Position numbers and translations under genes: made by a program. The notes under the pieces were generated by a model, which did no database searches, was not told the DNA's origin, and saw only the letters and a program-made list of their open reading frames with translations. This document shows positions 4,885-21,633 of a stretch of 64,000 bases of DNA, piece after piece (the first letter of the stretch is position 1; each line of letters starts with the position of its first letter). Source of the DNA: Parcubacteria group bacterium (GTDB lineage: Bacteria; Patescibacteriota; Minisyncoccia; Phycocordibacterales; Zambryskibacteraceae); NCBI GenBank assembly GCA_028286565.1, contig JAQBRH010000002.1, positions 17,876 through 81,875 on the forward strand, written 5' to 3'.

Positions 4885-5472
4885 ATGAAAACGCCCAAGT
4901 TCCTTACATACCAGAGCCGGATCTACCTCGGCCTTATGATCGCAATTGCAGCAGCTGTGCAGATCTTCAGCCTCATGCTTGTGGGCGTGGACAACAAGGC
5001 CCTTCCTCCGATCACGCTCCACAGCCTTCACCTGGCAGGATTACTGATCTCATGCGGAGTCTTCCTGTTTCTCACATGGGCGGCCGTGTACTTCCTGTTC
5101 GTCGCAGTTCATCCAATCGACCTGATGAACGCCACCGACGACGCTGAGAAGGACGTGGTGGCTAGAAAGATCAGGGGCGGAGATACCGCTATCGTGACCT
5201 ATCACTTTCGTGAGTTGCCACTTCGGGCAAAGGTGCTCGAAGTCATGTGCTGGGTAATGGCCACGCTTTTCGGCTTCATGGGTCTCGCACTCGCTACGGG
5301 TGTCGTGGGATTTGCCTTGCGCGGTCCAGGTACCGGCAGCAAGTGGGGATACATCGGTGCGATGGTCTGCGGGGCCGTTCTCATGATTTCAATGGCTCTC
5401 GCCGGACGAACGAAGCGTGTGCATGCTTTCGAGAAGTCGCGTCTCGACCTGACTCGCGATCTCGGGATCTAG
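4885..5472 (+). CDS. Integral membrane protein (about 5 TM helices), hypothetical; ORF-finder start 4801 probably too far upstream
   Basis: MKTPKFLTYQ start preceded by AGGGAAG; multiple hydrophobic segments. Confidence 0.6.
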   Translation: MKTPKFLTYQSRIYLGLMIAIAAAVQIFSLMLVGVDNKALPPITLHSLHLAGLLISCGVFLFLTWAAVYFLFVAVHPIDLMNATDDAEKDVVARKIRGGDTAIVTYHFRELPLRAKVLEVMCWVMATLFGFMGLALATGVVGFALRGPGTGSKWGYIGAMVCGAVLMISMALAGRTKRVHAFEKSRLDLTRDLGI

Positions 5473-5473
5473 C

Positions 5474-5665
5474 ATGCGAGCCCATACGATCTACGCTCCA
5501 CCTGGAGACGAGAAGACTCTGGAGATAGCCAACTCGCTTCGTAGACAGGGATATATGGTAACTATCCAGCCCAACCCTGGACTTACCGAGCCCTTGTTCA
5601 GAGCTGAGGATGGTCCCATCAGGGGTTATGAGAAGATTCTTCAACACTTCCGTAACCAATCGTAA
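5474..5665 (+). CDS. Small hypothetical protein (63 aa), translationally coupled to upstream membrane protein
   Basis: Start 2 nt after upstream stop; GC-rich codon usage like host genes. Confidence 0.45.
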   Translation: MRAHTIYAPPGDEKTLEIANSLRRQGYMVTIQPNPGLTEPLFRAEDGPIRGYEKILQHFRNQS

Positions 5666-5689
5666 CGGCGTGCCTTCTAGGTGCGCTGT

Positions 5690-5744
5690 TTTTTTATTTA
5701 CTAATTTTGCGAGCTGGCCAGATGGTACGAAGTTGGAACCTATT
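5690..5744 (-). repeat. Copy 1 (inverted orientation) of conserved intergenic motif AGGTTCCAACTTCGTACCAtCtGGCCAGCT...
   Basis: Core ACGAAGTTGGAACCT at 5727-5741 is the reverse complement of the 15-nt core found at 14074-14088, 14675-14690 and 16077-16091; starts at the TAG stop of the 5740..6339 gene. Confidence 0.8.
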
Positions 5745-6339
5745 TGATAAATTTGAAAGTAGAAAGTATCTTATTTCCTTCTGATTCTTTTCTGTAAATA
5801 TCAACTTCATATATGTCTTCTCTGTGCTGGAAAAAAATTTGCTGAGACCATCCCTTAACAGCTTGGTCATTAGGGGACCCTCTGTATATCTCGTAAATAT
5901 ATGCTGTTTCTCCATCGATAGTATCTTTTCCAATAAATCTTCTTACAACTTTTCCACTATCATCTGTTTTAGAAATGAGATCCAAGAAATCAACAATATT
6001 TTTTGCTGATGCATAGTAACTACCCAATTCCTTTGAGCCCAGAGGATTAATTATAAAACTCATAGTTTGATTTCCGTTTTTTATCCCTATAGACAAAAGA
6101 GATTCGTCACCTGTTGCATCAACTTCTCCTTTAGAAGGGCCGACCGTCGTAATAGTCAAACTTTCTGGATAATTAAGTTTAAAATTGTGTGCAGTGTTTT
6201 TGTATATCTTCCAGTTATCAGTTTCAGTGTTACTCTCAGTTATTGAAGAAACATTTTGTATAGAGTTATTTTTTGAAACAAAATACCAACCACCCAGAAC
6301 TATAGTAATACCCACTATCAAAATTATTTTAATTTTCAT
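5740..6339 (-). CDS. Hypothetical secreted/membrane-anchored protein, AT-rich (alternative start 6378)
   Basis: MKIKIILIVGITIVLGGWYFV signal-anchor; about 33% GC. Confidence 0.55.
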   Translation of the reverse strand: MKIKIILIVGITIVLGGWYFVSKNNSIQNVSSITESNTETDNWKIYKNTAHNFKLNYPESLTITTVGPSKGEVDATGDESLLSIGIKNGNQTMSFIINPLGSKELGSYYASAKNIVDFLDLISKTDDSGKVVRRFIGKDTIDGETAYIYEIYRGSPNDQAVKGWSQQIFFQHREDIYEVDIYRKESEGNKILSTFKFIK

Positions 6340-6523
6340 AAATTTAAATATAGTACAAAAACAGTAATCTACCAACATTGCTGGCCGTCTCGAGCTGGAA
6401 CCGCGGACGGGCTTGCTTTGCTTGGCGGGTTAGTTACGTTTTGCAGTACTCCGATGATGCGTCTCGTGCGCTTCAAAAAGTGACGAAAGTTATTTAGCTC
6501 TTCTTTTTACAATGATCAGATCT

Positions 6524-6880
6524 TTATACCTCAGGCTCTTCATTAATACCCAATTTTGATTGCATTGCCTGTCTAATCCACCATGTGGCATACGTTGAGA
6601 ACTTGTAATCTTTCCCATGGTGTCCATGCTTCACATACATATCTACGGCTTTGTAGAGGCCAAGATTGCCTTCCGCGATCAAGTCCATGATTGATACATT
6701 AGGATCTGTACCCTCATATTTTTGTGCGATCCTAGCTACCAAACGAAGGTTGCCCTCCGCAAGCTTTTTCTTAGATTCATCATCTCCTTTGCGGGCAAGA
6801 GCTTTCTCCTCTTCTGCTTTAATGAGAGGAGACCTTGATATTTCCTCTAGATATTTTGTTAGTTGAGAGTTTTTTGCCAT
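6524..6880 (-). CDS. Truncated sigma-70 family fragment: regions 1.2-2.4 only (118 aa), no region 3/4; pseudogene or sigma-fragment decoy
   Basis: [42 protein letters not shown] are hallmark sigma70 region 2 motifs; ORF stops right after region 2.4 and no downstream region 3/4 ORF exists. Confidence 0.75.
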
Positions 6881-7337
6881 AATTTCTTAGTTTATTGATA
6901 TCCGGAGTTGAGAGCCAAGCAGCCATAGCCCCATATCCTTTCTTATTTATAGTAAACGGTTCAATGGGCTGTGCCTTTCTAAGAAAGATGAGTAGACAGT
7001 ACTTCTTATCTTTAAAAAGATTTGCATAGTGCGGGATATCCTTTTCCTCAATTCCGTCTTGTGTACCATACGCTTTGAGGATTTCTCGTACTTTAATTGG
7101 AGTAAGGCCCTCAAAGGTGAGTACTTTTGAGACTTCGGCGATGACGGTCACAGGCTCTCCACTATTCTTAAAATAAACGCTATCCCAGGCCTTGATCTTT
7201 CCCCACGGCGCGGAACGATTCATATACCAGCGGGATTCGATGGTCTTCTCTCCAGTGAGGACCTGGGGCAACAAACCCCAAGACTTTTTCATGATGGCCA
7301 CATGGTCGGTGTGATTGTTGTCTTTCCTTTTATTCAT
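6819..7337 (-). CDS. ASCH-domain-like protein (putative RNA-binding), 172 aa; 3' end overlaps sigma fragment by 62 nt
   Basis: [22 protein letters not shown] pattern resembles ASCH beta-barrel N-terminus; assignment tentative. Confidence 0.4.
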
Positions 7338-7635
7338 GAGGCAGCTCTTTCACTTTCCTTACAAGCTCGTCCCAACTAGATGTTTTCATTCTCTGTCCAG
7401 GCGGAAGTTCGAGATCACAAGCATGGTCCAAAATGTCACTTACAATATTTTGTCGTTCACCATTAATTGTTAAGGCCTCAAATCCTGTGCCACAGATCTT
7501 ATACGCCGCTTCTTCGGGCGTGAGATCACCAGCTTCCTTTCGAGCGATCGTATTCTCACAGTATTCTCTAAGAGCCGAGAGCTTCTTCTCAGGCGCAGCC
7601 TCATGTACTTTCTGAAATTCAGGATCTTGGGTCAT
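7330..7635 (-). CDS. Hypothetical protein (101 aa), 4-nt overlap (ATGA) with downstream gene
   Basis: ORF in AT-rich operon, coupled stop/start. Confidence 0.45.
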   Translation of the reverse strand: MTQDPEFQKVHEAAPEKKLSALREYCENTIARKEAGDLTPEEAAYKICGTGFEALTINGERQNIVSDILDHACDLELPPGQRMKTSSWDELVRKVKELPHE

Positions 7636-7678
7636 ATTGTGTAATAAGGATGGAATTACCTAGAAAATATTTCTTAAC

Positions 7679-8008
7679 TTAAGTAACAAAGGCACTAAGG
7701 AATTCTCTCAAAAAGAAAACGACGCCTATAAATATCAATGTTCCAATCAAAGACTTTTTTGAATAGTTATCTTCGTGATTTTTTCCATTGATCAGAAGAT
7801 ATGTTAGCTCATCAACAAATAATCCTAAGCCTACTGCATAAGTAACTACTGATCCGATCAGTAACCCCAAAAGAACGAGACCAACGCCGTACATATAATG
7901 ATGAGTCCAAAACTTCCCAACCGTAGGTGCAGGTATAGGTTTAAAGTACAGAAACAAGCGTGTGAAGATAATGGTACCTAGAAATATGAGGAAAAACAGA
8001 TCTGCCAT
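7679..8008 (-). CDS. Small membrane protein (3 TM), hypothetical
   Basis: Hydrophobic segments; AT-rich. Confidence 0.5.
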   Translation of the reverse strand: MADLFFLIFLGTIIFTRLFLYFKPIPAPTVGKFWTHHYMYGVGLVLLGLLIGSVVTYAVGLGLFVDELTYLLINGKNHEDNYSKKSLIGTLIFIGVVFFLREFLSAFVT

Positions 8009-8514
8009 GGGTTAAGTATATATGAATATAACCCTTCTGTTTCAGGAAAGTTTATTTACGTCTAGACACGAAAACACTGCTGAGAATAGCGAGAGTAAGA
8101 ATGATCCCAAGTGCGAACCATAAGGAAATATCTCTCGGATGCCCTATAAGATACCGAATATTAGACAGATATTGAGAAGGTTGCATCAAATCGGCTAGCC
8201 TATTGTTTCTGTATTCATGCTCAGATAGACGTTAACTCAGTATTAATCTTTCTGTACAGACGGTAAGGTCAACACAAGAAAGTTGACCGAGGGCCGTCTC
8301 TTTATCTATGCCTTGGACAGACATAATTGGAAAATAAAAGTCGTTAATGGACCCAATTGCCTCCACAGCCCTCCCGCAGGCCGTGCATTTTTATGTGGTT
8401 GTTGGTATGCATGATATCTATGACGTGAACAGCGGCCATGACTTACAAACTATTTGATATACCTCTACTTCTCCTAAAAAAGCGAGTCATCTAGACTCGT
8501 CCTTAGATGCAACA

Positions 8515-9042
8515 TCATCCTTTCTTAAGAAAAGGCACTGTGATTGAAGCAGCGAGGATAATACCAATACTATTACTTATGAGATCAAGCCACGTATCTT
8601 CGATGGTGGTCGACATTACAAAGCCGAGGTAATGCTGAAGCACAAACTCCAGGATCTCATTCCCCACCCCAAGCGCAGTCACCACAAGTGCCGTAAAAAC
8701 AAAAAATTGGAATTTATTGATTACGACTTTGCTGTCTCTGATCGCCAAGAAACAAACAACTAAAGCTAGAAACCCTCCACAAAGCCCATGCTGAATGCGA
8801 TTTGCAAGAGCTCCATCAAAGCTTTCAACAATGAGGGCACTAAAAAAATTAAGGATGAGGATAGTGACGATCGAGAGGCAAGCACGATGGAAATCTAGCT
8901 TAGGGATTCTCTGTTCAAAAAAGTATGCAACCAGGAAAAGAGAAACTAAATAAAGAATTGGGTAGGCAAAAGAAATACCAAAAAGGAGGGAGATAAGGTG
9001 GGCGGACATAACAGTAGAATACCACATACGAAGTTTGAACAA
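8515..9042 (-). CDS. Integral membrane protein (about 5 TM), hypothetical; hairpin CGAGTC-ATCTA-GACTCG plus T-run downstream on minus strand (8482-8510)
   Basis: Hydrophobicity pattern; terminator-like hairpin after stop. Confidence 0.55.
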   Translation of the reverse strand: MFKLRMWYSTVMSAHLISLLFGISFAYPILYLVSLFLVAYFFEQRIPKLDFHRACLSIVTILILNFFSALIVESFDGALANRIQHGLCGGFLALVVCFLAIRDSKVVINKFQFFVFTALVVTALGVGNEILEFVLQHYLGFVMSTTIEDTWLDLISNSIGIILAASITVPFLKKG

Positions 9043-9044
9043 TT

Positions 9045-9398
9045 TTAAAACTTTCCAGTTAATATAAAAACTAAGCTAATAAGCCCAAAAACAAACGCAA
9101 GCACGACAGTTCCTGAAATAAGATCTTTGCTGCGGCCAATTGCTTCATCGTGCCCAGGATGAAGTTTAGTAAGAGCAATTTCGATAGCCATATTTTGGAT
9201 TTCGGTAACTACAATGAAAAACCAGCAAAATATCAACAGTAGTAACTCTTGAGCTGATAGCGGCCCGAATAAGAAATATACAGCCGGTATTCCGATAATT
9301 CCAAAAACAATCATTTCGAAACGAACAGCGAAGTCCTGAGTGAAAGCATATTTCAAGCCTCGAAAGGGATGAGAAAGTCTATTAATCCAATACTTCAT
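9045..9398 (-). CDS. dgkA: Diacylglycerol kinase / undecaprenol kinase family (DgkA-like) membrane protein
   Basis: 3 TM helices and conserved EIQNMAIEIALTKLHPGHDEAIGRSKDLISGTVVLA resembling prokaryotic DAGK signature. Confidence 0.65.
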   Translation of the reverse strand: MKYWINRLSHPFRGLKYAFTQDFAVRFEMIVFGIIGIPAVYFLFGPLSAQELLLLIFCWFFIVVTEIQNMAIEIALTKLHPGHDEAIGRSKDLISGTVVLAFVFGLISLVFILTGKF

Positions 9399-9406
9399 GA
9401 CATATT

Positions 9407-9961
9407 TTAATTATGTGCTTTCTTTTTCTTAAACATCTTCTTATACTCGCTTCGGCTCATCAGACTTTTGGTATCAGTGAGTCTGTCTAAGAATACCTTG
9501 CCGTCAATATGGTCGAGCTCGTGGAGGATCACTTTGGCAAGCAAACCTTTAGCTTCCATAGTGAACCATTCTCCATTTTTGTCTCGCGCTTTAATGACAA
9601 GTGAAGTAGGTCTCGACACTTTGCCAAAGAGATTTGCATGGGCTACGCTGCCGCATCCTTCGTATTCTGAGAAGGTTTTCTTAGAGACTGAGAGTACCTG
9701 AGGATTTATGAATACACGCAGATCATCTGCCTCTTTATCTTTGTCGATTGTTCTCAGGGAAGTCATCCTTATTTCTGTAAGAAAAATCCTTTGGTTAATA
9801 CCAATTTGAGGAGCTGCGATCCCTACCAAATTTCCATGTCTCATTGAATCAACCAGATCTTTAATGGTCTTTTTAATTTTCTTTGATTTAAAATCCTTCA
9901 CCACAGAAGACTTCCTACGGATGATCGGATTGCCTACTTGGGTTAATTCTTTGATTATCAT
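9407..9961 (-). CDS. def: Peptide deformylase
   Basis: Motifs GIAAPQIGINQRIF, EGCGS, HELDHIDG (HExxH) diagnostic of PDF. Confidence 0.9.
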   Translation of the reverse strand: MIIKELTQVGNPIIRRKSSVVKDFKSKKIKKTIKDLVDSMRHGNLVGIAAPQIGINQRIFLTEIRMTSLRTIDKDKEADDLRVFINPQVLSVSKKTFSEYEGCGSVAHANLFGKVSRPTSLVIKARDKNGEWFTMEAKGLLAKVILHELDHIDGKVFLDRLTDTKSLMSRSEYKKMFKKKKAHN

Positions 9962-9969
9962 TTATTGTT

Positions 9970-10404
9970 TTAAATAAGATGTCTATCTGACTTCCAGACT
10001 ACACCTGAGCCAAAATCTGGAGCTCGAAATAAAGCCTTCTGATCATCCTCACTCATTTTCTGTGCGTACCCGCGTACAAGCTCTAGCTCCTTTGGGTCAG
10101 TAACCTTCCTGAAGCCCGGAGAATCATAGCCAGATCCCGGATCAGATTCCCATTTCAACAATCCCTCACTGTCGTTACCAAAGAGTCTTCCGGACTGTTC
10201 TCTAGACATCCACAGATACGTCTCATACCACCCGTCTATGATAGGTCCCTGAATTAATCTGACACTTTCTTTGTCTAGCCCTGTTTTATAATCTGCTACA
10301 CTCCAAGACCATCCTATTTGTGCTTGAATATCAAATTTAGCAAGGAAAAGTACTACTAAAGCTAATGCAAGCAGGAGCAAATAAAGTGAGTGAGTCTTTT
10401 TCAT
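9970..10404 (-). CDS. Hypothetical secreted protein (signal peptide), 144 aa
   Basis: N-terminal MKKTHSLYLLLLALALVVLFLA signal; AT-rich. Confidence 0.5.
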   Translation of the reverse strand: MKKTHSLYLLLLALALVVLFLAKFDIQAQIGWSWSVADYKTGLDKESVRLIQGPIIDGWYETYLWMSREQSGRLFGNDSEGLLKWESDPGSGYDSPGFRKVTDPKELELVRGYAQKMSEDDQKALFRAPDFGSGVVWKSDRHLI

Positions 10405-11060
10405 TTCTTTAAATATTCAAACATCTTCTCTAAAGCAATCTTTCTCATAGAAGTATTGTGTTTTTCATCATCATTCATCTCTGCCCAGGTCTTTTCATGT
10501 CCCTTGGGAATGAAAATGGGATCCCAGCCGAAACCCATTTCTCCTTTTGGAGCATTGGCAATTATTCCCTCCATAGATCCACTAAAGATGCGTACTCCCG
10601 ATTCATCACAAATAGCGAATTGAACTTCAGCTAAAGCGTCTCTGGTATCTAAACCGTCCACCAATCTACAGAGTCCCTCGTTATCAAGTGTTTCCAAAAA
10701 CCATTTAATAAGAGGACCAGGAAGAGATTTCATTCCCTTAAAAACAAGCGATACATCTTCTACTAATACTGGAGACTTTACGATTTCATATGCTCTTTTA
10801 GCCTTATCTTTAACAACTTCTTCCAAGTCTAAAGACTGGATTTCCTTAAGATCTAGTTTGGTGTGAGCAACAGGTAGATGAAAATAGTCTCCAAGATATT
10901 TGGCTTTTCCTTCATTACCCGTGATGAAAGTAAGATTACTCATAGCCTTCATCTTATCCTGATAGTCGTACTTAGCAAGCAGGTCAAATATCACTGCCAA
11001 TTCAGCAATAAACTCTTCGTGTGACTGCTCTAGGTCTTGATCTGTCACTGCTTTACTCAC
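10401..11060 (-). CDS. rdgB: Non-canonical purine NTP pyrophosphatase (Ham1/RdgB family) with N-terminal extension
   Basis: FITGNEGKAKYL N-terminal motif and C-terminal EMGFGWDPIFIPKGHEKTWAEM...HNTSMRKIA match ITPase family signatures. Confidence 0.7.
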   Translation of the reverse strand: MSKAVTDQDLEQSHEEFIAELAVIFDLLAKYDYQDKMKAMSNLTFITGNEGKAKYLGDYFHLPVAHTKLDLKEIQSLDLEEVVKDKAKRAYEIVKSPVLVEDVSLVFKGMKSLPGPLIKWFLETLDNEGLCRLVDGLDTRDALAEVQFAICDESGVRIFSGSMEGIIANAPKGEMGFGWDPIFIPKGHEKTWAEMNDDEKHNTSMRKIALEKMFEYLKK

Positions 11061-11104
11061 TTAGAAAAGTATTACATTGACGCGTCTTGAGCGTAGCACT
11101 TGTT

Positions 11105-11123
11105 TGCTGGGGAGCAGGGAATC
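11105..11123. repeat. 19-bp exact direct repeat of the 3' end of tRNA-Gln (tgctggggagcagggaatc); putative att scar
   Basis: Identical to 13576-13594 (tRNA-Gln T-stem 3' half plus acceptor 3' strand). Confidence 0.85.
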
Positions 11124-11860
11124 TCGACTACCGTCGCGAGTGGTTTTCGATCTCGACATACTCGATAACGAAAACCCTTTCGATTCCCTGACGCAAGCAA
11201 AGCAGTTTGCTTACTCTCTCCCAGCAGTAAAGCAAAACGAGCAGCCCGTGCCGCTCGTTTGTGCTAATAACTGCTGGGATTCGTGCGGGATGTTCGAACC
11301 CTTGTGGCTTCTTGTGATGAGGATTTCGAGAAACGACTCGAGAATATCAGGCGGATCAATGAGGCGACGACGGGAAGGGCTTTGGCTGCCTAGAACGTCT
11401 CGAACGTCCTAACGTCCGGAAATGCAAGGTTCACTGTGCTATTCCTCGAGCTCTACTGCCTCACATTCGGTTTAAACGTTGCGCTACTTCCAGGCATTAC
11501 TATCGACCTACTAGCGGTTACTGGTAGAGGGGTCTGGGGAAGCGCATCTGCTGGTGGAACCAGTGAAGCTGATCTTGTTTGGGTGGAAAGGGATATAGGA
11601 GGAGTGTCTTCACCCTCAGCCGTAAAACGTCGTCGATGTCGTGAAGTCCTATGCGCTGAAATGACCGGACGACCAGAAGTATGGTCGCTGTAGGTAGCCT
11701 CTATTAATATGGTAGCCCCACCAAAGGCTGAGCTCGTTCGCTCGTTGCTTAGAAACACGAGCGCGGCATGCTTTTGGCAAGGGTACGCTAGTGGCTAGTA
11801 CCTGGGTAGCCAAGGAGCTCCCCTGAGGAGCGAGATGCTTGCGCATAGCGCAAGGAGGAA
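11124..11860 (+). other. 0.74-kb segment without any credible ORF, rich in hairpins; candidate structured ncRNA, long leader, or decayed gene inside the putative integrated element
   Basis: All six frames fragmented by stops; hairpins CGCTCG-N13-CGAGCG (11737-11761), TTGCGC-ATA-GCGCAA (11836-11850); ends in AAGGAGG RBS of the next small gene. Confidence 0.35.
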
Positions 11861-11863
11861 TGT

Positions 11864-12037
11864 ATGGGCAAGAAGGACAAGTTCGAGGGACACAAGGACG
11901 AGAGCTTCAACCGTGCGCATGGCCGCCGGGACAACGAGCCGTCCAAGACAAAGCAGGACGACACCAAGCGCGAACGGAATGTCGCCGCAAAGGGTAGTGA
12001 AGAGCACAGCCGCGTAGCCAAAGGCAAGCGCGGTTAG
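11864..12037 (+). CDS. Small highly charged/basic protein (57 aa), below ORF-track cutoff
   Basis: Perfect SD AAGGAGG 5 nt upstream of ATG; followed by hairpin plus TTTTTCTTT terminator at 12063-12098. Confidence 0.6.
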   Translation: MGKKDKFEGHKDESFNRAHGRRDNEPSKTKQDDTKRERNVAAKGSEEHSRVAKGKRG

Positions 12038-12062
12038 TAAGCTCCTCTGAGCTCAGTTCGTT

Positions 12063-12098
12063 GACGGCCGGCGTGATTTCGCTGGCCGTTTTTCTTTA
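12063..12098 (+). terminator. Rho-independent terminator after small basic protein gene
   Basis: GGCCGGCG-tgatttc-GCTGGCCG imperfect stem followed by TTTTTCTTT. Confidence 0.55.
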
Positions 12099-12119
12099 TG
12101 ATGATGATACAATTTTATC

Positions 12120-12716
12120 ATGTCACACGAGGCGAACATCGCACGACGCGCATCCTGGCTCGGTAAGCACGGCACGGTCACCCTGATCGAAGATGAGACC
12201 ATTCAGGGGTACCAACATGCCCTTTCGCTCGAAGATGTCGCGGCAAGCTTGAAGCTCCTTCCGGAAGACGATCTAAGAGGCCTCGCCGCTGTCATCCTCC
12301 ACCAGCCTTCGCGAAAGGAAGACGCCGCCCACCCCCGCTGGGCGGCATATTTCTCCGACTATAGTCGGAATGATATCGTCGGTCCAACAATCCTGCTCGA
12401 GGCAGTTCGGCCGGAAGTTCCGAATCGTTGGCCGGTATCTCTTGGGCCCGAAGATGTCCGGGAGCTGAAACTACTTGTAGACGAAGGGCATGTCATCGAT
12501 CGGCAAGAACGGGTTGTCCTGATTTCGAATGACATTCACGCAGTGCGGAATACGCAGCTTCGTTCCTTGGTTCACGAGCTGGGGCATCATGTCGACTATA
12601 TGAGCAACCCAGCTTCGTACGCCTCGAAGGGAAAGAATCACAAAGAGTCTTTCGCGATTCGCTACGCGCGTCACCACGCTGACGTGCTCGACGGGCTGCG
12701 CTTCGCAAGGTCCTAA
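12120..12716 (+). CDS. Hypothetical protein with HExxH zinc-metallopeptidase-like motif (LVHELGHHVDY), SprT/ImmA-like possibility
   Basis: HELGH motif plus downstream His residues; no further family assignment possible. Confidence 0.45.
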   Translation: MSHEANIARRASWLGKHGTVTLIEDETIQGYQHALSLEDVAASLKLLPEDDLRGLAAVILHQPSRKEDAAHPRWAAYFSDYSRNDIVGPTILLEAVRPEVPNRWPVSLGPEDVRELKLLVDEGHVIDRQERVVLISNDIHAVRNTQLRSLVHELGHHVDYMSNPASYASKGKNHKESFAIRYARHHADVLDGLRFARS

Positions 12717-13095
12717 CATCCGCAGAGTAGGAGAAGGATTCGACTCTCTTCCGATGCCACGCGACCGTGCTGCGTACCGGCGAGCAATTCGCTCTGCAAG
12801 ACGTCGTGCTCGGTGACGCAATATCGCTCGAGCGGTTGACTCCCCGATGGCGGCACGAGCAAGATCCAGTTCATTCCTACCTGGATCTTCGAAAGGAGGT
12901 ATACCACTTCAGACGAGGATGAGCACTGAGTCTTTCCACTTTCAAAAAGCTGTGGATATCTGGTGAGCAAGAACACGTACAATAGAGATGTGGATCAATA
13001 ACTCTCATGTTGGAGGGTGTCGCTATTGTATTTGCCAAAGTTGTAAATATGTGTCCTAATGTGGCTGGCCCTATGGGACTATGTTGGAACTTTTG

Positions 13096-13527
13096 TTAAT
13101 CAAGAGGGTACAAAACATACCAAGGGTTCCCCGGTAGCCTTTTCCTAATACCAGCCTCAATGTTTCTGTCCGGCAAGTTGTGCCAAGGATCCACCCATCC
13201 ATCTTTTACTCTTAATAAATAGTGGCCGACGGGATACTTTTCGTTTTTAGCTATCAGAGTTATAGAACCTATAATTTTAGAATATTTACCTCCTTCCTTT
13301 TTATTAAACTCATATTTTTTATTTTGGTTAAAAAACTTACTTTTATAATTTATGTTTTTAGTTTTTAGATAATTTACAATATCAAATATTTTTACACCTC
13401 TTTCAATTGTATAAAACTTACTTTCAAAATCTTTCTTTACAGTGTCGTATGGTTTATCTAGAAAATTTGCGAGACAAGCAATTCCGCAACCGTTGAGATC
13501 TTTTTGATGTTGCCATTTTTTAGTCAT
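13096..13527 (-). CDS. Peptidase C39-like (papain-fold cysteine peptidase, C39_2-type) standalone domain; 30% GC, abuts tRNA-Gln
   Basis: Q-x5-NGCGIACLANFL catalytic Cys motif and C-terminal VGHYLL...DPWHN His region resemble C39 bacteriocin-processing peptidase domain. Confidence 0.5.
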   Translation of the reverse strand: MTKKWQHQKDLNGCGIACLANFLDKPYDTVKKDFESKFYTIERGVKIFDIVNYLKTKNINYKSKFFNQNKKYEFNKKEGGKYSKIIGSITLIAKNEKYPVGHYLLRVKDGWVDPWHNLPDRNIEAGIRKRLPGNPWYVLYPLD

Positions 13528-13575
13528 ACACCGATCCTACATTTTAATAATATATATGCAAGAGACTACCTTACG

Positions 13576-13648
13576 TGCTGGGGAGCAGGGAATCGAACCC
13601 CAATTAAAGGCTTCAAAGGCCTCTGTCCTACCGTTAGACGACTCCCCA
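13576..13648 (-). tRNA. tRNA-Gln (anticodon UUG)
   Basis: Minus-strand sequence TGGGGAG-TC-GTCT-AACGGTA-GGAC-A-GAGGC-CTTTGAA-GCCTT-TAAT-TGGGG-TTCGATT-CCCTG-CTCCCCA-G folds as cloverleaf with TTCGATT T-loop; acceptor UGGGG.../...CCCCA-G matches canonical bacterial tRNA-Gln. Confidence 0.85.
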
Positions 13649-13750
13649 ATAGGCTTAAGGTATCAAAAAATCGGAGAAATCGCTATCAGTGGTACCCTCG
13701 AATCACCTGTGCTAGGCTACATCTAGAAACCTTCCACCCGGAGCACGAAA

Positions 13751-13996
13751 ATGTCGACAGATAGCCGAGACCAGGTCTTTACTACCATGTGGATTGCGAT
13801 CATCCTCGGGTCCGGGACCGTAGCCGCGGGAATCGTCCTGAGCAATTCCCTGGTGCTTGTGACGGCGGGGATGGTCATTCTTCTTACTCTCATCTTCGGC
13901 TCTATGCAGTACGGACGGTCGCCACTCCCCTCCACCTACTCTCGATGGTGGATCGGGGTATCGTTGGGAACTATTGCTCTGGCGTTCCTCATGTAG
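13751..13996 (+). CDS. Small membrane protein (81 aa, 2-3 TM), hypothetical
   Basis: GGAG 7 nt upstream; hydrophobic segments; competing minus-strand ORF is Arg/Pro-rich and implausible. Confidence 0.45.
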   Translation: MSTDSRDQVFTTMWIAIILGSGTVAAGIVLSNSLVLVTAGMVILLTLIFGSMQYGRSPLPSTYSRWWIGVSLGTIALAFLM

Positions 13997-14070
13997 CAGG
14001 CCGAAGGCCCCAGTGACCGGCTTGATCAAAACTTTTCAAAGCTCCCAGCCTGGGTGCTTTTTCTTTACCT

Positions 14071-14120
14071 AAATAGGTTCCAACTTCGTAATAATAGGTT
14101 AGCAGACAAATTTGATAATG
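14071..14120 (+). repeat. Copy 2 of conserved intergenic motif (ATAGGTTCCAACTTCGTA...), immediately after hairpin plus T-run
   Basis: 15-nt core identical to the other copies; 3' half diverged. Confidence 0.8.
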
Positions 14121-14220
14121 CATTTAACTGAAGGGTGTGTTAATGTCACAACGATTCAGGAGGGTCCTGGACACTGTTCTTTATCGGTGAGCGCGATAAC
14201 CGTTCACAGGAGAGTGGGAT

Positions 14221-14634
14221 ATGTTTGCGAAAACCAAACGTAACGATTGGATCACACGCCTTACACTTCTCTTTTCTTCAGCCGTTGCCCTTGTGCATGA
14301 GAGCAAGCGCTCTCCTAGCCAGACTGAGAAACTTCTGCTGTGCTTACAGGAATTCAAGGATACCCCCGATGAATCAACTGTAATGACTCAGGATGATTAT
14401 GCGGTGCTACGAGTGACTCGCACACACGGGGGAGAGTGGGCCAACTTCATTATGGTGGTAAGGATCGGAGACATTTTTCCATCTCCGTTAGGAAATGAAC
14501 GCCACGAGTTCGTTCACTTCCCGGCTCCCACCACGGGTTTGGGTGGGGTAGGTGGGCGAGTCTTGTTCCTTTTAAAGAAGGAGCAGTCTGCCGTAGTCCG
14601 TGCCCATCTTAGCGAAGTTCCAAAAGAAGACTAG
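14221..14634 (+). CDS. Hypothetical protein (137 aa) flanked on both sides by copies of the intergenic motif
   Basis: GGAG RBS; strong terminator at 14641-14671. Confidence 0.55.
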   Translation: MFAKTKRNDWITRLTLLFSSAVALVHESKRSPSQTEKLLLCLQEFKDTPDESTVMTQDDYAVLRVTRTHGGEWANFIMVVRIGDIFPSPLGNERHEFVHFPAPTTGLGGVGGRVLFLLKKEQSAVVRAHLSEVPKED

Positions 14635-14640
14635 ATCTAT

Positions 14641-14671
14641 AGCGACACCGGATGTGAGGTGTCGCTTTTTA
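14641..14671 (+). terminator. Rho-independent terminator AGCGACACC-GGATGTGA-GGTGTCGCT-TTTTT
   Basis: Perfect 9-bp stem plus T-run immediately after stop. Confidence 0.85.
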
Positions 14672-14720
14672 ATAGGGTTCCAACTTCGTACCACAGGGCC
14701 AGCTAGCGAATTTTGAAAAG
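14672..14720 (+). repeat. Copy 3 of conserved intergenic motif (ATAGGGTTCCAACTTCGTACCACAGGGCCAGCTAGCGAATTTTG)
   Basis: Core plus extended ACCAC.GGGCCAGC match to copies 1 and 4. Confidence 0.8.
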
Positions 14721-14758
14721 AAAAACTCCTCAACAAATTAATGTTGAGGAGATGTGAC

Positions 14759-16000
14759 TTAGATGAATTCTGCGAGCCACCGACCTTCATTCATGAGTTG
14801 AGCGACTTTATTGCCGCTTGCATCATACGCAAAGATGGAGGTGGTTTCGTCTGAGATCATCAGGTCATGGTGCACACCCGACTCGTTGCACCCGATCTCA
14901 GCGAGGTCCTCTTGCGACATGGCTGGTCCACCCTTGAGTGCAGATGCGTATGCTTCACCGAGCGCGATATGGCATCGTTTGTTCTCGTCAAGCAGTGTAC
15001 AGAAGTGAGGTTCAGTGTATTGCGAGAGAGCTGATTCGAGTCCGACGCAGGCGACCTCTCCGAGCTGAGCAGCTCCGTCGTCACGAGAGATCAGCGATCC
15101 AAAAGCTTCTGAGCCTGTCTGTGCGGTGAACTTGCTGACTCGACCCTCAGAGAACCAGATCCGAAGACCTTCAACAATCGGTCCATCGAGCACTGAAGGC
15201 ATCGTTACTCTGACAACACCTTCGGTCTTCCTCCAATCCGGAGTCGTGAAGACCTCAAAGGTTGGCCAGTTCGGCTCAAACCACGTCCCATCTTCAGATT
15301 CCTTGCGTCCACCGAGCCATCTGGCCCGTGAAGACAGTCCAACTTTGAGGTCGGTGCCTTCACCTACAAAATGGAGAGTGGTGATGCCAAGAGTATTGAG
15401 CAAATCACATCGGCGACTCAGGCTGCTATTGAAAACAGTCGCCTGGGCAAGGCTATCATCGCGGTCTGCGCCTGTGATGGTAAACAGAAATTCCCACAAG
15501 TCTTCGATCGAAGTTCCGAGTTTCTTGGCCCAAGCGATCGTAGGCACATCGACAAGGGTCCATGGCTGGAGCATTTTCATGCGCCGAGAAGTGTAGGGTT
15601 CGTTAGCCTTCATGTAGGCTGATTTGAACCCAGATGGATATTTAGGATCTACATCATCCATTACTCCCAGGTCACCATTGCCTTTAAGGGCGATGCGAGC
15701 TCCGTCGTGGTCCACGATCTCTTGTGCTCGAACGCTTACCCATTTAGGCTCGTACAGCTTGTGTGTCTCCGGTGCTCCGAGGAACATGGCGCGCTCGAGC
15801 TCAGGGTTGCGATAGCGTACATCGACCGTTTCAACTCCGAGAGCATAGGCCTCTTTTGCTAAGACGGCGATCAGATGGCCGTGGTCCTCGATCTGATAGC
15901 TGTCGATATAGAGGGGCCGGGGCCTCTGGTCAAAACCAAGTCCGTGTATCAATCCCAATCTTGCATAATTACGCAGTTTTTCTTCAAAGGACAAACTCAT
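14759..16000 (-). CDS. Aminopeptidase, M29 (AmpS/PepS/aminopeptidase T) family; true start at internal Met (MSLSFEEKLRNYA), not ORF-track start 16114
   Basis: DENKRCHIALG and HHDLMISD metal-binding motifs; SD GGAGAG 7 nt upstream of ATG at 16000; ORF-track N-terminal extension overlaps motif copy 4. Confidence 0.8.
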   Translation of the reverse strand: MSLSFEEKLRNYARLGLIHGLGFDQRPRPLYIDSYQIEDHGHLIAVLAKEAYALGVETVDVRYRNPELERAMFLGAPETHKLYEPKWVSVRAQEIVDHDGARIALKGNGDLGVMDDVDPKYPSGFKSAYMKANEPYTSRRMKMLQPWTLVDVPTIAWAKKLGTSIEDLWEFLFTITGADRDDSLAQATVFNSSLSRRCDLLNTLGITTLHFVGEGTDLKVGLSSRARWLGGRKESEDGTWFEPNWPTFEVFTTPDWRKTEGVVRVTMPSVLDGPIVEGLRIWFSEGRVSKFTAQTGSEAFGSLISRDDGAAQLGEVACVGLESALSQYTEPHFCTLLDENKRCHIALGEAYASALKGGPAMSQEDLAEIGCNESGVHHDLMISDETTSIFAYDASGNKVAQLMNEGRWLAEFI

Positions 16001-16074
16001 TGGATCTCTCCGGGTGAGGGGTGACTGGCTAGGTAATACCACAAAAATGATAGAAGAGCTAGAAGCAGAAGGTT

Positions 16075-16118
16075 CCAACTTCGTCTCACGGGGCCAGTAA
16101 AATTTTGTGCTCATAATT
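16075..16118 (+). repeat. Copy 4 of conserved intergenic motif (AGGTTCCAACTTCGTCTCACGGGGCCAGTAAAATTTTG)
   Basis: 15-nt core identical; lies between divergent aminopeptidase and VOC genes. Confidence 0.8.
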
Positions 16119-16171
16119 TAGTTCTTAATACGTCTGCTATACTTGAACATAATTATTAATTAGCTATCACC

Positions 16172-16564
16172 ATGAACAGACCAGTACACTTTGAGATCCA
16201 GGCAGACAACATCGAGCGGGCAAAAACATTCTATGAGAAGGTCCTCGGCTGGAAGATCGAACAGATGATGAAGAAAGAAGAGGGAGGAATGGATTATTGG
16301 GGACTCGACACTGGGGACAGCACTCCGGGCATCAACGGAGGCCTCTATGCTCGAGCAGAAGGGACAGACAAGCTCTACACGTACGACTGCACCATCGCTG
16401 TTGAAGACGTGGACAAGGCCGTTGAGGCCGTAAAGGCGAACGGCGGCACCGTCCTCCGCGAGAAGTCCGAGATCCCGGGCGTCGGCTTTTTTGCGCGCTG
16501 CAAGGATACTGAAGGCAACCTGTTCGGATTGATGCAGCCGACGGGCTGGGATGGGAGCAAATAA
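16172..16564 (+). CDS. Glyoxalase/bleomycin-resistance (VOC) family protein
   Basis: VHFEIQADNIERAKTFYEKVLGW N-terminal and GNLFGLMQ C-terminal typical of VOC fold; terminator TGCACC-AAAGG-GGTGCA-TTTTTT at 16587-16612. Confidence 0.7.
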   Translation: MNRPVHFEIQADNIERAKTFYEKVLGWKIEQMMKKEEGGMDYWGLDTGDSTPGINGGLYARAEGTDKLYTYDCTIAVEDVDKAVEAVKANGGTVLREKSEIPGVGFFARCKDTEGNLFGLMQPTGWDGSK

Positions 16565-16761
16565 CAGAACAGGAAGAAGAAAATCAAATGCACCAAAGGG
16601 TGCATTTTTTCGTATATAGCTGAGTTAAGAATTAAAAATAAATGAAAAAATAAGGCTGTAATGAATTTTCATATAGGTCGTCAGTAGATGTAGGTCGAGA
16701 TTATAAACCAATCTGAGCAGCAGAATGTCTGCTCATCATTAGAAGAATTAATTTCACTACA

Positions 16762-17061
16762 ATGGCTAACAACGATAGAAACAGCGGTGGAGGCAGCGGA
16801 GGTAACAGCGGGGGAAACAATGGAGGAAATAACGGAGGGAACAGCGGCGGAAGCAACCGCGGATTCGCGGGCATGGATCGCGACAAACAGCGAGAAATAG
16901 CTTCTGAAGGAGGCCGAGTCGCTCATGAACGAGGAAACGCTCATGAGTGGGATTCGGAATCCGCTCGAGAGGCCGGCCGCAAGGGTGGCCAGAGCCGCAG
17001 CCAAAACAGCTCCGGTTCAGGCAATAGAGATTCCCTCGGCGAGGACAATCGCGGAATGTAG
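16762..17061 (+). CDS. KGG-repeat general stress protein (YciG-like) with N-terminal Gly/Asn/Ser-rich low-complexity region
   Basis: REIASEGGRVAHERG and ESAREAGRKGGQSRSQ match the KGG stress motif; terminator AAGACCCCG-AGCAATG-CGGGGTCTTT at 17087-17118. Confidence 0.6.
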   Translation: MANNDRNSGGGSGGNSGGNNGGNNGGNSGGSNRGFAGMDRDKQREIASEGGRVAHERGNAHEWDSESAREAGRKGGQSRSQNSSGSGNRDSLGEDNRGM

Positions 17062-17192
17062 ACTATATAGAAGAGTGAAAAAGGAGAGACAAAGACCCCG
17101 AGCAATGCGGGGTCTTTCGTCGCTTTACTGATGAGCTTGCATGTGGTGTGGTTATTTTCTATAATTCGAGTTGATTAAAACTAACATCATCT

Positions 17193-17771
17193 ATGAACAC
17201 CACCACCCTCCATCACCAGCACAGCAAACTCGAAAAGAAAATTAATTTTACCCCGCGATACGACCGCACTGTGGAGTGGTTCGGAGGTGTGAATTATTCG
17301 AACTTCGACCGGGCCGTGAATGATATCAAATCCCTTCTGCGGGAAAATCCGCGCGAAGAGATCCAGCTCGTTGTCAGTTCGTACGGAGGATCAACGGGGA
17401 TCGGGATGGGATTCTATGATTCGATGACCTCGATCATGAAGCCGCACCTCACCACCATCGGCACAGGCGACGTTGATTCTTCGGGAGTCATCGTCTTCCT
17501 CGCGGGCTCAAAGAGATTCCTCACCAAGAACACGCACCTCCTCCTCCACCTCGGAGGCCGGACCTTCGAAGAAGGCAAGCGATTCTCCACATATGACATC
17601 GAAGACATGCTGAAAGAGAATAAGTTGAAGGATTATCAGTATGCCTGCGTCCTCGCCGATGCGACGGAAGGAAGGTATTCTCCGGAGCGGATCCTCGAGC
17701 TCATGTCGAAGAACACCATTCTCTCGGCCGAAGAAGCCGTCCGCATGGGTCTCGCACACAAAGTGATATAA
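17193..17771 (+). CDS. ClpP-like serine peptidase (S14 family fold), standalone 192-aa paralog 1
   Basis: SSYGGSTGIGMGFYDSM, GTGDVDSSGVIVFLAG, LLLHLGG, AEEAVRMGLAHKVI parallel ClpP blocks (INSPGG..., GxAAS, MIHQP, AEEA..GL.D.I). Confidence 0.6.
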   Translation: MNTTTLHHQHSKLEKKINFTPRYDRTVEWFGGVNYSNFDRAVNDIKSLLRENPREEIQLVVSSYGGSTGIGMGFYDSMTSIMKPHLTTIGTGDVDSSGVIVFLAGSKRFLTKNTHLLLHLGGRTFEEGKRFSTYDIEDMLKENKLKDYQYACVLADATEGRYSPERILELMSKNTILSAEEAVRMGLAHKVI

Positions 17772-17775
17772 CAAA

Positions 17776-17806
17776 AAACCACTCTCGATCGAGTGGTTTT
17801 TATAGA
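17776..17806 (+). terminator. Rho-independent terminator AAAAAACCACTCGATCGAGTGGTTTTT (bidirectional; also follows sortase gene on minus strand)
   Basis: Palindrome CCACTCGATCGAGTGG flanked by A-run and T-run. Confidence 0.75.
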
Positions 17807-17809
17807 GAT

Positions 17810-18520
17810 CTATTTGACCAAGGTCGTATAGACGACGAGCCTCTGGTCATACGTCTTCTGTCCGGGCACCCAATCTCCGGTGCAGGTGACGAGGTTCAAG
17901 TGTATTCCGTCGGCGGATGTGAAGACCGAAGAGGTCGGCACATCCTGATACGGATACAAGATGGCCTCATCCACCCTGAAGTGAAGCGTGGTCCCGTCGC
18001 CTCGGGTGACGTACACATCATCTCCAGGCTTGAGATCTTCGAGGTGTTTGAAAACCCCCGAGAGAGCCAGGCCGTTGTCCACATGGCCGGCCATGACCGC
18101 ACTGCCTATTTCTCCGGGGACGGTTCCGGGTTTGTACCAAGAAACATCCGTGAAGTTATTCGGCGTCGCCATATTACCCTTGGCGTTTATCCCCACATGC
18201 TGGACGTTCGCATCGATCCCTAGAGAGGGGATCGCGAGGCGAGTCGGATAGGCAGACTGGACAACCGGTTTCGGTGCGATGATCGGTTTAGGTTTTGGAG
18301 GTATGACTGCTGTGCTCGGCTTGGTACTTGTAGATGCCGTCACCACTTCTCTTTCTGCAACGGCGATGGTGTTTGCTTCTACTGCTACAGGTGTGAAGGA
18401 GACGGTCCTCGAATCCTCATTGGCCGCATAGAAGACGGATCCGAAAAGGGTATATCCGAAGGTGAGGAGAGCGAGGAGGATGATGCCGATCCCTATTGTT
18501 CTTTTGGTGCTCGTGTTCAT
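17810..18520 (-). CDS. Sortase (class E/F-like transpeptidase)
   Basis: N-terminal TM anchor, conserved AGHVD His region and LNLVTCTGDW (TLxTC catalytic Cys motif). Confidence 0.75.
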   Translation of the reverse strand: MNTSTKRTIGIGIILLALLTFGYTLFGSVFYAANEDSRTVSFTPVAVEANTIAVAEREVVTASTSTKPSTAVIPPKPKPIIAPKPVVQSAYPTRLAIPSLGIDANVQHVGINAKGNMATPNNFTDVSWYKPGTVPGEIGSAVMAGHVDNGLALSGVFKHLEDLKPGDDVYVTRGDGTTLHFRVDEAILYPYQDVPTSSVFTSADGIHLNLVTCTGDWVPGQKTYDQRLVVYTTLVK

Positions 18521-18608
18521 GTAGTGTTGCGTTTACTTTACCAAACAACGGGGCTCGTGAGAGCTCCCGTAGTTCGGCCTAAGAGCGGATGCTCTTTGTT
18601 ATGTGAGG

Positions 18609-19280
18609 TTATCTAGCGTATTTTCGTGTGTAAGCGAGTCCGAGACCTGCGACTGCGATCGATCCGATAAGGAGAGCGATATTAGTCGTGGCTGCTCCTC
18701 CGAATCCGGTGTTAGGAATACCTGGGACCGGAACCGGGACGGGGGTGACTGCTACTCCGCCGACACCGACGACTGCTGGGAGGCCGGTCGAGACTGCGGT
18801 AGCGGGAACTGATGCGGTGTTGATGCTGAACTGGTAGGTGCCTCCTGCTGGAAGGTTCGATGCAATGTTACATTCGATAAGGAGGTTCAGCGCGGTTCCT
18901 CGAGCGATGATCATTGGTGAATCGAATACGATCGAGTTAGCGCCTGATGAGAGGTTCGCGATCGCGTTCGTGCCGCTGTTCAAGTTGTTCGAAGGGGTGA
19001 CAGAGTTCACTGCGTGGCAGCTCGTCAAGCTTGTTGCGGTTCCTCCGTTGCCTGAAGTGAGGACGATCGGAAGGCTGGCGAGGCGGATATCATCTGTTGA
19101 AGCCGTTGCGTCCAATCGAACGTTTGCCAAGACCACGTTTTGAGCTCCGGCGTTGATAGCTGAAGCGACCCCTGCGGTCTGAAGCTGAACAAGAAGGCTA
19201 GGACCGGCGACCTGGGCGCTTGCTCCTGAAGAGAAGGCGAAAAAGGCGGCGATCACTGGGATGATTAAGAGTTTCTTCAT
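18609..19280 (-). CDS. Secreted surface protein with C-terminal sorting signal (IPNTG + hydrophobic segment + RKYAR tail), probable sortase substrate
   Basis: Signal peptide MKKLLIIPVIAAFFAFSSGASA; C-terminal GIPNTGFGG-AATTNIALLIGSIAVAGLGLAY-TRKYAR tripartite cell-wall sorting signal; immediately upstream of sortase in same orientation. Confidence 0.7.
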   Translation of the reverse strand: MKKLLIIPVIAAFFAFSSGASAQVAGPSLLVQLQTAGVASAINAGAQNVVLANVRLDATASTDDIRLASLPIVLTSGNGGTATSLTSCHAVNSVTPSNNLNSGTNAIANLSSGANSIVFDSPMIIARGTALNLLIECNIASNLPAGGTYQFSINTASVPATAVSTGLPAVVGVGGVAVTPVPVPVPGIPNTGFGGAATTNIALLIGSIAVAGLGLAYTRKYAR

Positions 19281-19677: not shown

Positions 19678-19704
19678 GAACAAAGTCAGTTAATCAGCAA
19701 CACC

Positions 19705-19911: not shown

Positions 19912-19914
19912 CCC

Positions 19915-21586: not shown

Positions 21587-21633
21587 CAACCCCCGCTTCG
21601 GCGGGGTTTTGTGTAGCATAAAAAAGCCGCCTC

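Follow-up and report, generated by a model that had tools for sequence, protein, structure and literature searches.

We have analyzed a 64-kb stretch of DNA (the window) from a contig of a Parcubacteria group bacterium, a member of the Candidate Phyla Radiation (CPR, or Patescibacteria), in which the 3' end of a tRNA-Gln(UUG) gene is duplicated on either side of a 2.45-kb insert. With a probability that we put at roughly 0.6, the DNA lying 3' of this tRNA gene is an accretion zone of small, integrase-less cassettes, and the 19-nt repeat created by the duplication marks the two outer junctions of the most recently added 2.45 kb. This reading draws on the observed anatomy of the locus, on the observed recurrence of one of its cassettes in other genomes, and on arrays of similar units observed elsewhere. 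CPR bacteria have very small genomes with few recognized mobile elements, and the means by which they acquire accessory genes is poorly understood.

The junction pair consists of the following features.

13577-13648, minus strand: tRNA-Gln(UUG) gene called by ARAGORN, with its 3' end as the putative attachment point (attB/attI-like)
13576-13594, minus strand: proximal copy of the 19-nt repeat, made up of the last 17 nt of tRNA-Gln plus 2 nt
11105-11123, minus strand: distal copy of the 19-nt repeat, a displaced tRNA-Gln 3' end at the outer boundary of the 2.45-kb insert

Rfam places the same tRNA at 13578-13648 with a score of 59 bits. The 19-mer, TGCTGGGGAGCAGGGAATC, is present in exactly these two copies, no third copy being found in the window at up to 2 mismatches; the chance expectation for the repeat is 0.01, and two matches are seen in 0/100 dinucleotide shuffles. 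Its tRNA portion comprises the 3' half of the T-loop, the 3' strands of the T-stem and acceptor stem, and the discriminator. In the direction of the tRNA strand, 2451 nt lie between the intact tRNA and a second GATTCCCTGCTCCCCAGCA further on, which has the same orientation. The sequences flanking the two copies are unlike on both sides, with similarity ending abruptly at 19 nt, and gapped alignment of the 5' part of the tRNA with 11124-11230 reveals no similarity (score of 14 versus a shuffle mean of 17.5). Because the rest of the tRNA aligns no better than shuffled sequences, the distal copy is a sharply bounded core in the classic attL/attR geometry and not a decayed duplicate of the tRNA. 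A decayed second tRNA gene at the distal position was also ruled out on the grounds that neither ARAGORN nor Rfam calls a tRNA there, and a search of the window for a third, degenerate tRNA-end copy at up to 3 mismatches, in which longer and shorter tRNA-end queries were tried, was equally fruitless. An earlier note on this DNA, made from its letters alone, had described an exact duplication of the tRNA-Gln 3' end, in the same orientation and with differing flanks, and had likened it to the attL/attR products of integration into tRNA genes; both statements stand, given that foreign DNA separates the intact tRNA from a displaced tRNA 3' end with sharp edges.

The base composition of the insert is foreign and reveals a mosaic when set against the background GC content of 0.53 (positions 20001-64000).

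13094-13575: GC 0.32
12951-13062: GC 0.39, a 112-nt spacer between the cassette site and the high-GC module
11303-12950: GC 0.55
5743-11104: GC 0.40, the left flank

We therefore distinguish Module 1 (13063-13575), which has 32% GC and contains a promoter, a gene for a C39-like peptidase and a 31-nt site, from Module 2 (11124-13062), which has 54% GC. The gap in GC content between the two halves exceeds 20 points, and their phyletic distributions are unrelated. Module 1, which lies next to the tRNA, has three parts, the last of them scored with a position weight matrix (PWM).

13528-13575, minus strand: 5' end of the cassette, CGTAAGGTAGTCTC, with -35 element TTGCAT (13561-13556), a 16-nt spacer ending in TG, and -10 element TAGGAT (13539-13534)
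13096-13527, minus strand: standalone C39-like (papain-fold) cysteine peptidase gene of 143 aa, in the 0.32-GC segment
13063-13093, minus strand: terminal site of the cassette, 31 nt, AAAGTTCCAACATAGTCCCATAGGGCCAGCC, PWM score 35.2 versus a null maximum of 17.4

The 5' end begins directly after the tRNA sequence ...CCCCAGCA, and its leader is predicted, on reading the sequence, to be a promoter of the -35/extended -10 type. In the window, L010 and L028 the conserved leader reads CG(T/A)AA(G/A)G, about 10 nt, -35 element TTGCAT/TTGTAT and extended -10 element, placed right after ...CAGC(A/T). Near-identical leaders are present in two of the loci fetched for comparison (L010 and L028), at the same distance after a pseudo-tRNA site ending ...CAGCT. 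The same cassette 5' boundary thus abuts the real tRNA-Gln end in the window and the 31-nt pseudo-tRNA site in L010 and L028. In addition, the 31-nt site is found 3' of the C39-like gene in L005, L010, and L016. We considered a dif/Xer site within the AT-rich leader, but this was ruled out since the elements fit a -35/extended -10 promoter common to many family members.

The tRNA-proximal 0.51 kb is a self-contained cassette, apparently mobile on its own, that recurs in ~35 other CPR loci. The C39-like protein has 117 homologues with 52-86% identity, mostly encoded in CPR metagenome-assembled genomes (MAGs), and the DNA identity of the gene across hosts is 77-79%. Its GC content lies below that of the host contig at every locus examined (for example, 0.37/0.50, 0.30/0.40, and 0.32/0.49), and the gene neighbourhoods vary between loci. 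A same-strand tRNA gene lies no more than 800 nt upstream of the C39-like gene in 9 independent loci out of ~35, compared to ~0.25 expected from the density of tRNA genes elsewhere in the same loci. The tRNA is tRNA-Gln in the window, L018, L030/L032 and L044, tRNA-Lys in L021 and L022, tRNA-Glu in L024 and L039, and tRNA-Leu in L035/L036. Moreover, direct repeats composed of the tRNA end and its flank bracket the C39-like inserts of L005 (40 nt), L018 (24 nt) and L039 (26 nt), and a similar repeat of 39 nt in L019 ends upstream of the C39-like gene; all of these lie far above shuffled controls. An apparent strain polymorphism between L005 and L006 proved to be merely different gene calls on identical DNA.

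A subfamily of C39-like genes has another leader, GCTAGC(A/G)CGAGAAG(C/T)ATG, in L021 (2998-3545), L022 (2977-2997), L024 (2978-2997), and L039 (2323-2347/2868-2893). It is duplicated after the gene in L021 and L039, and in L021 the duplicate precedes the next open reading frame (ORF); by its appearance this is a second kind of cassette boundary. In L011 (4739-5770), a low-GC CPR contig, the C39-like gene is located 230 nt from a serine-recombinase gene with Recombinase/Zn_ribbon_recom domains. This is the only recombinase seen beside any member of the C39-like family, and no 31-nt site is present at L011.

The 31-nt site has the consensus aaaGTTCyAACwTCrTCCCAnAnnGnCAGCw and resembles a tRNA-Gln 3' end whose T-loop has gained 5 nt by insertion. 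Copies from one genome agree in their 3' half, whereas those from different genomes do not; the final bases of the L010 site at 5421 are CCCGCAGCT, which is identical to the nine bases spanning the 3' end of the tRNA-Gln(CUG) gene in L018. Three of the fetched loci, from other CPR genomes, contain arrays of the site.

L010, 1-5960: 8 sites in 6 kb, separating single genes with GC contents of 0.56/0.32/0.50/0.36/0.50/0.35/0.35/0.30
L155 (a Magasanikbacteria chromosome), 5182-12230: 7 sites in 7 kb
L028, 468-1485: 3 sites, separating high-GC cassettes and the low-GC C39-like cassette

In all three arrays the sites are on one strand and intergenic, each being located after one or two genes, and the cassettes carry their own promoters and terminators. 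No tRNA gene is near the L010 array or within 10 kb of that in L155. The L010 contig itself ends within a copy of the site, and the 6 kb beyond the array contain none. No attC-like dyad symmetry is evident in the site on reading the alignment, and folds of the L155 junctions show a terminator hairpin only. An inverted GGTTCnAA/TTnGAACC pair at some L155 junctions was examined as an attC-like dyad and rejected, as it shows no covariation and is absent in other genomes. We found no description of arrays of this kind in CPR in the literature that we searched.

A scan of viral contigs with a degenerate 17-mer gave 106 matches, approximately the number expected by chance, and 22 of these represent one conserved coding stretch in phage contigs. 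The sequence concerned, GGTTCCAACATCGTCCCAGACAACAGCC, lies inside a conserved ORF of 22 IMG/VR contigs (L056, L059, L061, L062 and 18 others) with GC contents of 0.64-0.69, and its 27/30 identity to the L028 site is odd, though judged to be a chance resemblance.

When the PWM was applied to the window, five strong 31-nt sites (scores of 23.7-37.6) were located at 5.7-16.1 kb, a stretch that also holds the low-GC segments of the window. Strong and weak sites all lie at 4.6-16.1 kb, and the PWM finds none in the remaining 48 kb. Besides the terminal site of the C39-like cassette, these are as follows.

5712-5742, minus strand: score 35.9, at the far end of a 5.4-kb low-GC block
14074-14104, plus strand: score 23.7, with a degenerate 3' half, after a terminator-like hairpin that follows ORF 13751-13996
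14674-14704, plus strand: score 37.6, after the terminator (14641-14666) of ORF 14221-14634
16069-16099, plus strand: score 32.6, between an M29 aminopeptidase gene and a glyoxalase-family gene
11272-11302, minus strand: weak att-like pseudo-site, AGGGTTCGAACATCCCGCACGAATCCCAGCA, score 8.9 and non-significant alone, intermediate between the tRNA end and the 31-nt site
4568-4598, minus strand: weak candidate, borderline score of 16.1, before ORF 4014-4535

ORF 14221-14634 is flanked by two of these sites, which are 600 nt apart. A possible degenerate copy on the plus strand (3949-3987, AAGTTCTCTAACTACC...GGGCC) coincides with a GC step at ~3950; if this copy and that at 4568-4598 are real, the cassette zone reaches 3.95 kb.

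From the observations above we infer a recombination mechanism, a type of catalyst and an order of events. Circular cassettes bearing an att site that mimics the tRNA 3' end would recombine with the tRNA 3' end itself. Since the tRNA and the 31-nt site share only ...CCAGC, the crossover probably takes place at this sequence. The recombinase would be of the tyrosine-integrase type, encoded elsewhere and acting in trans, and each new insertion would settle beside the tRNA, displacing older ones outward. At the locus studied here, the HExxH module (a putative metallopeptidase gene with its neighbours) and the non-coding stretch beyond it would have been the first to enter, by way of a 19-nt core that matches the tRNA exactly, giving rise to the 19-nt repeat. 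The C39-like cassette would later have entered near ...CCAGC, between the tRNA and the HExxH module, bringing its own 31-nt site. The low-GC block past the distal repeat (5743-11104), which ends in the site at 5742, may be an older, larger insertion. The cargo (a papain-fold peptidase, a zincin-fold peptidase, and a small charged protein) would then represent accessory genes. The model also makes the prediction that the 3' end of the tRNA-Gln(CUG) of this genome reads ...GGGCCAGC(T), like the 3' half of the 31-nt sites in the window.

A broader proposal, which we advance tentatively and hold at somewhat less than even odds, is that CPR bacteria possess an undescribed, integron-like cassette system. 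Self-expressed cassettes of one or two genes, each with a ~31-nt site mimicking tRNA-Gln, would be added one after another, either at tRNA 3' ends or at sites already present, by a recombinase whose gene lies elsewhere, so building co-oriented arrays with GC contents of 0.30-0.56. The 19-nt repeat and the mixed-GC region at 5.7-16.1 kb of the window would constitute one such array anchored at tRNA-Gln. Were the 31-nt site indeed a recombination site, the system would provide compact, tRNA-anchored cassette capture, following a logic like that of integrons and tycheposons with different sites and with self-expressed cassettes. It would also account for GC-mosaic islands in CPR genomes, and would supply a sequence signature by which to recognize them, as well as a defined att sequence as a starting point in tracing the recombinase. 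For the window itself, the analysis points to two unannotated peptidase families, C39-like and zincin-like, as recurrent mobile cargo, and the 2.45 kb should not be annotated as one element.

Several observations weigh against serial accretion at the tRNA. The two-step order is indistinguishable from one composite insertion event. The 31-nt site has no linked recombinase: Pfam (including the Logan tables) finds none in the ORFs of 100 aa or more throughout the 64-kb window, and none lies on the L010 contig of 12 kb or in the 10 kb around the L155 array. The sites in the window are of mixed orientation, two strong ones to the left of the tRNA being on the minus strand and three to its right on the plus strand, which simple one-way accretion does not predict; in the L010, L155, and L028 arrays the sites are co-oriented. 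The C39-like cassette of the window lacks a repeat pair of its own, its terminal site and the tRNA end having only CCAGC in common. Host-specific flank forms part of the repeats in L005, L018, and L039; a portable attP would not normally include such sequence, and a mechanism of another kind may be involved. An empty site, a circular junction and a close relative were all absent from the collections searched, and insertion is thus inferred from the anatomy; a 28-mer joining the left flank to the repeat has 0 matches in metagenome contigs, and the neighbouring M29 gene has no relatives in GTDB genomes. Finally, the distal repeat copy lies in a 102-nt stretch (11081-11182) outside the Logan contigs that we fetched, and this junction therefore depends on the MAG assembly alone.

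The last point bears on whether the bracketing is real. As an independent check of the assembly, we used Logan contigs of run SRR13312974, which match the window with 100% identity.

L003: window 4909-11080
L001: window 11183-13606
L002: window 13622-25118

These contigs corroborate the GC steps at ~5500 (L003) and ~12950 (L001) as well as the cassette/tRNA junction (L001). The Logan contigs (k = 31) stop at 11080 and resume at 11183, 25 and 60 nt from the repeat, which suggests graph branching or a drop in coverage near the distal junction, and possibly heterogeneity of the population there. The MAG contig might thus fuse two organisms or loci at or near the shared tRNA-derived 19-mer, a notion to which the unsupported left copy, the 0.40-GC block adjoining it in a 0.53-GC genome, and the status of tRNA genes as known break and join points in metagenome assembly all lend some weight. 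Nevertheless, a 19-nt identity is shorter than the smallest k in usual assemblies (21 or more), the Logan contigs end outside the repeat and never within it, and the other GC steps are spanned independently, by L003 across 5500 and by L001 across 12950 into the tRNA. Sites having the genome-specific 3' half GGCCAGC occur in the territory of L003, L001, and L002 (5742, 13093, 14674, and 16069), and all three contigs are therefore tied to one genome. Even a chimera would retain a copy of the 19-mer abutting 11124. We consider a chimera at the left junction unlikely, and give the assembly-artefact explanation as a whole very little credence. A different possibility is that the 31-nt motif is no recombination site but serves regulation or accompanies terminators, that the C39-like gene favours tRNA-proximal positions for its expression, and that the 19-nt repeat is an unrelated old scar. 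The motif does lie mostly just after intrinsic terminators and before promoters and is without a linked recombinase, and only 21-25 nt separate the tRNA from the start of the gene in L022 and L039, consistent with co-transcription. Against this, the motif is clustered and not genome-wide: the window has its 5 strong copies at 5.7-16.1 kb and none in the other 54 kb, and L010 has 8 copies in its first 6 kb and none in the next 6. The motif also delimits genes of very unlike GC content. The L010 contig end within a motif copy, the genome-uniform 3' half that differs between genomes and resembles tRNA-Gln acceptor ends, and the cassette boundary that can adjoin a real tRNA end as well as the motif argue in the same direction, and we regard this explanation as distinctly improbable.

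In a reading that follows the earlier note, a single element (an island or prophage remnant) would have entered tRNA-Gln by means of its own tyrosine integrase and then lost the integrase by deletion, so that attL and attR now bracket a decayed or minimal stump of 2.45 kb. A tRNA with a direct repeat of its end is the classic geometry for such an event, and the 0.74-kb non-coding stretch at the distal end is a possible place for decayed genes. Six-frame translation of 11060-11900, however, gives no integrase or other Pfam signal even at E ≤ 10, so that the search for integrase remnants suggested at the time has turned up no detectable pseudogene. In tRNA-integrated elements the integrase usually lies beside the tRNA, whereas this position is held here by a cassette that moves independently in many genomes. 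Together with the GC mosaic, the unrelated phyletic distributions of the two halves and the different origin of the HExxH module, these findings leave the idea of one decayed or minimal element unsupported, and we think it unlikely. What the note said of gene content has been borne out: no recombinase family is represented in the three ORFs of the insert or in the six-frame translation above, and the 57-aa ORF after AAGGAGG, the HExxH ORF, and the low-GC C39-like ORF are located as described. Its suggestion of a satellite-like hitchhiker survives in part, in that cassettes mobilized in trans would be hitchhikers; a phage satellite does not fit, because satellite-type genes for replication, packaging or regulation are missing from the insert, for which PADLOC also gives no match. 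Searching PHROGs with the insert proteins yields a sole match, between the C39-like protein and a family of unknown function, and no match to insert-like DNA was obtained in phages and plasmids. When 11000-13100 is used as a query against the fetched loci, matches are confined to the HExxH region (L004) and the 31-nt site (L028).

The accretion zone that we favour shares features with several known systems. The concept of cis-mobilizable elements (CIMEs) reportedly comes from work on ICESt1/ICESt3 of Streptococcus thermophilus. As in CIMEs, foreign DNA without a recombination module lies between attL/attR-like repeats at the 3' end of a stable-RNA gene, shows tandem accretion, and is presumed to be mobilized by an integrase from another element. 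Unlike CIMEs, the units described here are of 0.5-2 kb with one or two genes, no cognate integrase-bearing element is known, and at least one unit is widespread as a free-standing cassette having its own conserved tRNA-mimic site. Tycheposon islands of Prochlorococcus target tRNA genes, have partial-tRNA flanks and undergo repeated integration at the same site, which pushes older elements inward, with degenerate remnants and extra partial tRNAs scattered within the islands; each tycheposon brings a tyrosine or large serine recombinase of its own and, in most cases, a replication module (bioRxiv 10.1101/2020.12.28.424599). The likeness to the present locus lies in tRNA-targeted serial integration and in a small, streamlined host genome, but recombinase and replication modules are lacking here and single-gene cassettes are split by a conserved 31-nt site. 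With regard to integrons, a complete integron needs IntI, and a cluster of attC sites without the integron integrase is termed a CALIN; attC sites are 57-141 nt long and have R''/L''-L'/R' imperfect inverted repeats. Integrons and CALINs resemble the arrays described here in being co-oriented series of diverse cassettes of one or two genes, each ending in a recombination-type site, with no integrase nearby (as in a CALIN) and with the tRNA end apparently in the role of attI as entry anchor. They differ in that the site here is of ~31 nt, tRNA-Gln-like and, on reading sequence and folds, free of a dyad or hairpin, and in that the cassettes are self-expressed and IntI is absent. The insert is also unlike satellites of the phage-inducible chromosomal island type, having no integrase, replication or packaging-interference genes.

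Peptidase C39 domains process bacteriocins as part of ABC exporters. The similarity of the cassette protein to these domains consists of a weak Pfam match to PF03412 in its N-terminal catalytic region (17.8 bits, under the 22-bit cut-off) and a conserved Gln/Cys/His/Asp pattern; among 24 family sequences, Q8, C14, and D113 are invariant and H102 is nearly so. In contrast to the exporters, the match is sub-cut-off, with only 1/117 homologues carrying a precomputed PF03412 match, the protein is a standalone one of 143 aa with no adjoining or fused ABC transporter, and no gene for a double-glycine substrate is nearby.

Module 2 contains the following features.

12120-12716, plus strand: HExxH protein of 198 aa with a zincin (gluzincin-like) metallopeptidase fold
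11864-12037, plus strand: highly charged 57-aa protein, with AAGGAGG upstream and an intrinsic terminator at 12063-12090
11124-11863: 0.74-kb stretch with no recognizable coding sequence, and with hairpins at 11141-11177 and 11216-11279

This is a separate, higher-GC module whose ancestry is unlike that of the C39-like cassette. The HExxH protein has the HExxH motif and a third ligand on a zincin fold, as zincins do. There is only one close homologue (57% identity), encoded on a high-GC contig of 1.4 kb beside a gene of non-CPR appearance, and the names attached to its relatives are 'hypothetical protein' only, one being from Verrucomicrobiae. Both the HExxH gene of the window and that of the homologue are preceded by a terminator and, 6 nt ahead of the ATG, by a TACAAT box, an arrangement that suggests a leaderless transcript. 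Directly after the HExxH stop codon there is a fragment resembling a tRNA T-arm and acceptor, GAAGGATTCGACTCTCTTCCGATGCCA at 12733-12765 of the window and GGTGGTTCGAGTCTCTCACTACCCTCA at 640-668 of L004, for which Rfam makes no call; this could be an att scar from an earlier tRNA-linked life of the module. Searches of Pfam, PHROGs, PADLOC, and NCBIfam place the 57-aa protein in no family, and a gene at its position is also called on Logan contig L001.

The earlier note had described the 0.74-kb stretch as ORF-free and structured. Family matches are indeed lacking there, but mechanical ORFs of 85-111 aa exist in 11077-11758, and the description does not hold to that extent. Both strands fold better than shuffled sequences, with z-scores of -3.8 (plus) and -5.2 (minus). 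Candidate known RNAs were rejected, as Rfam searches (gathering, E ≤ 10) gave chance-level matches only, such as a SNORA74-like hairpin of 20.6 bits versus a cut-off of 71 bits, and no DNA similar to 11124-11863 was found in phages, plasmids, or the fetched loci. The 60-nt hairpin at 11216-11279 is near-perfect, its arms (CTCCCAGCAG and CTGCTGGGA) being inverted and direct partial copies of the repeat core TGCTGGGGA, and the right arm overlaps the pseudo-site at 11272-11302. These arms could be recombinase-binding sites of a former attP, or a product of chance.

The HExxH and C39-like proteins correspond to JWN89_42 and JWN89_43 in the NCBI entry for the Parcubacteria group bacterium MAG, on a contig of 220,859 bp. 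To the left of the insert, the 5.4-kb block of 0.40 GC at 5743-11104 has the distal 19-mer on one side and the 31-nt site at 5712-5742 on the other. It contains ten co-directional, housekeeping-like genes on the minus strand, including those for Ham1/ITPase, peptide deformylase, diacylglycerol kinase, DUF2238, and a sigma-70 region-2 fragment. Homologues of Ham1 (77% identity) are found in unrelated contexts that are not syntenic with the window. The Ham1 ORF (10401-11060, minus strand, 219 aa, GTG start) is probably over-extended, its homologues being of ~180 aa and covering 82%; the true start would be near 10943, leaving ~160 nt of intergenic DNA before the 19-mer. On the other side of the tRNA, the site at 16069-16099 falls within the extra N-terminal codons of the M29 aminopeptidase ORF (14759-16114, minus strand). 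The Pfam M29 match starts at residue 43, and the site therefore probably lies upstream of the real M29 start. The M29 gene is present in reverse orientation between two 31-nt sites, as is the EamA cassette in L155.

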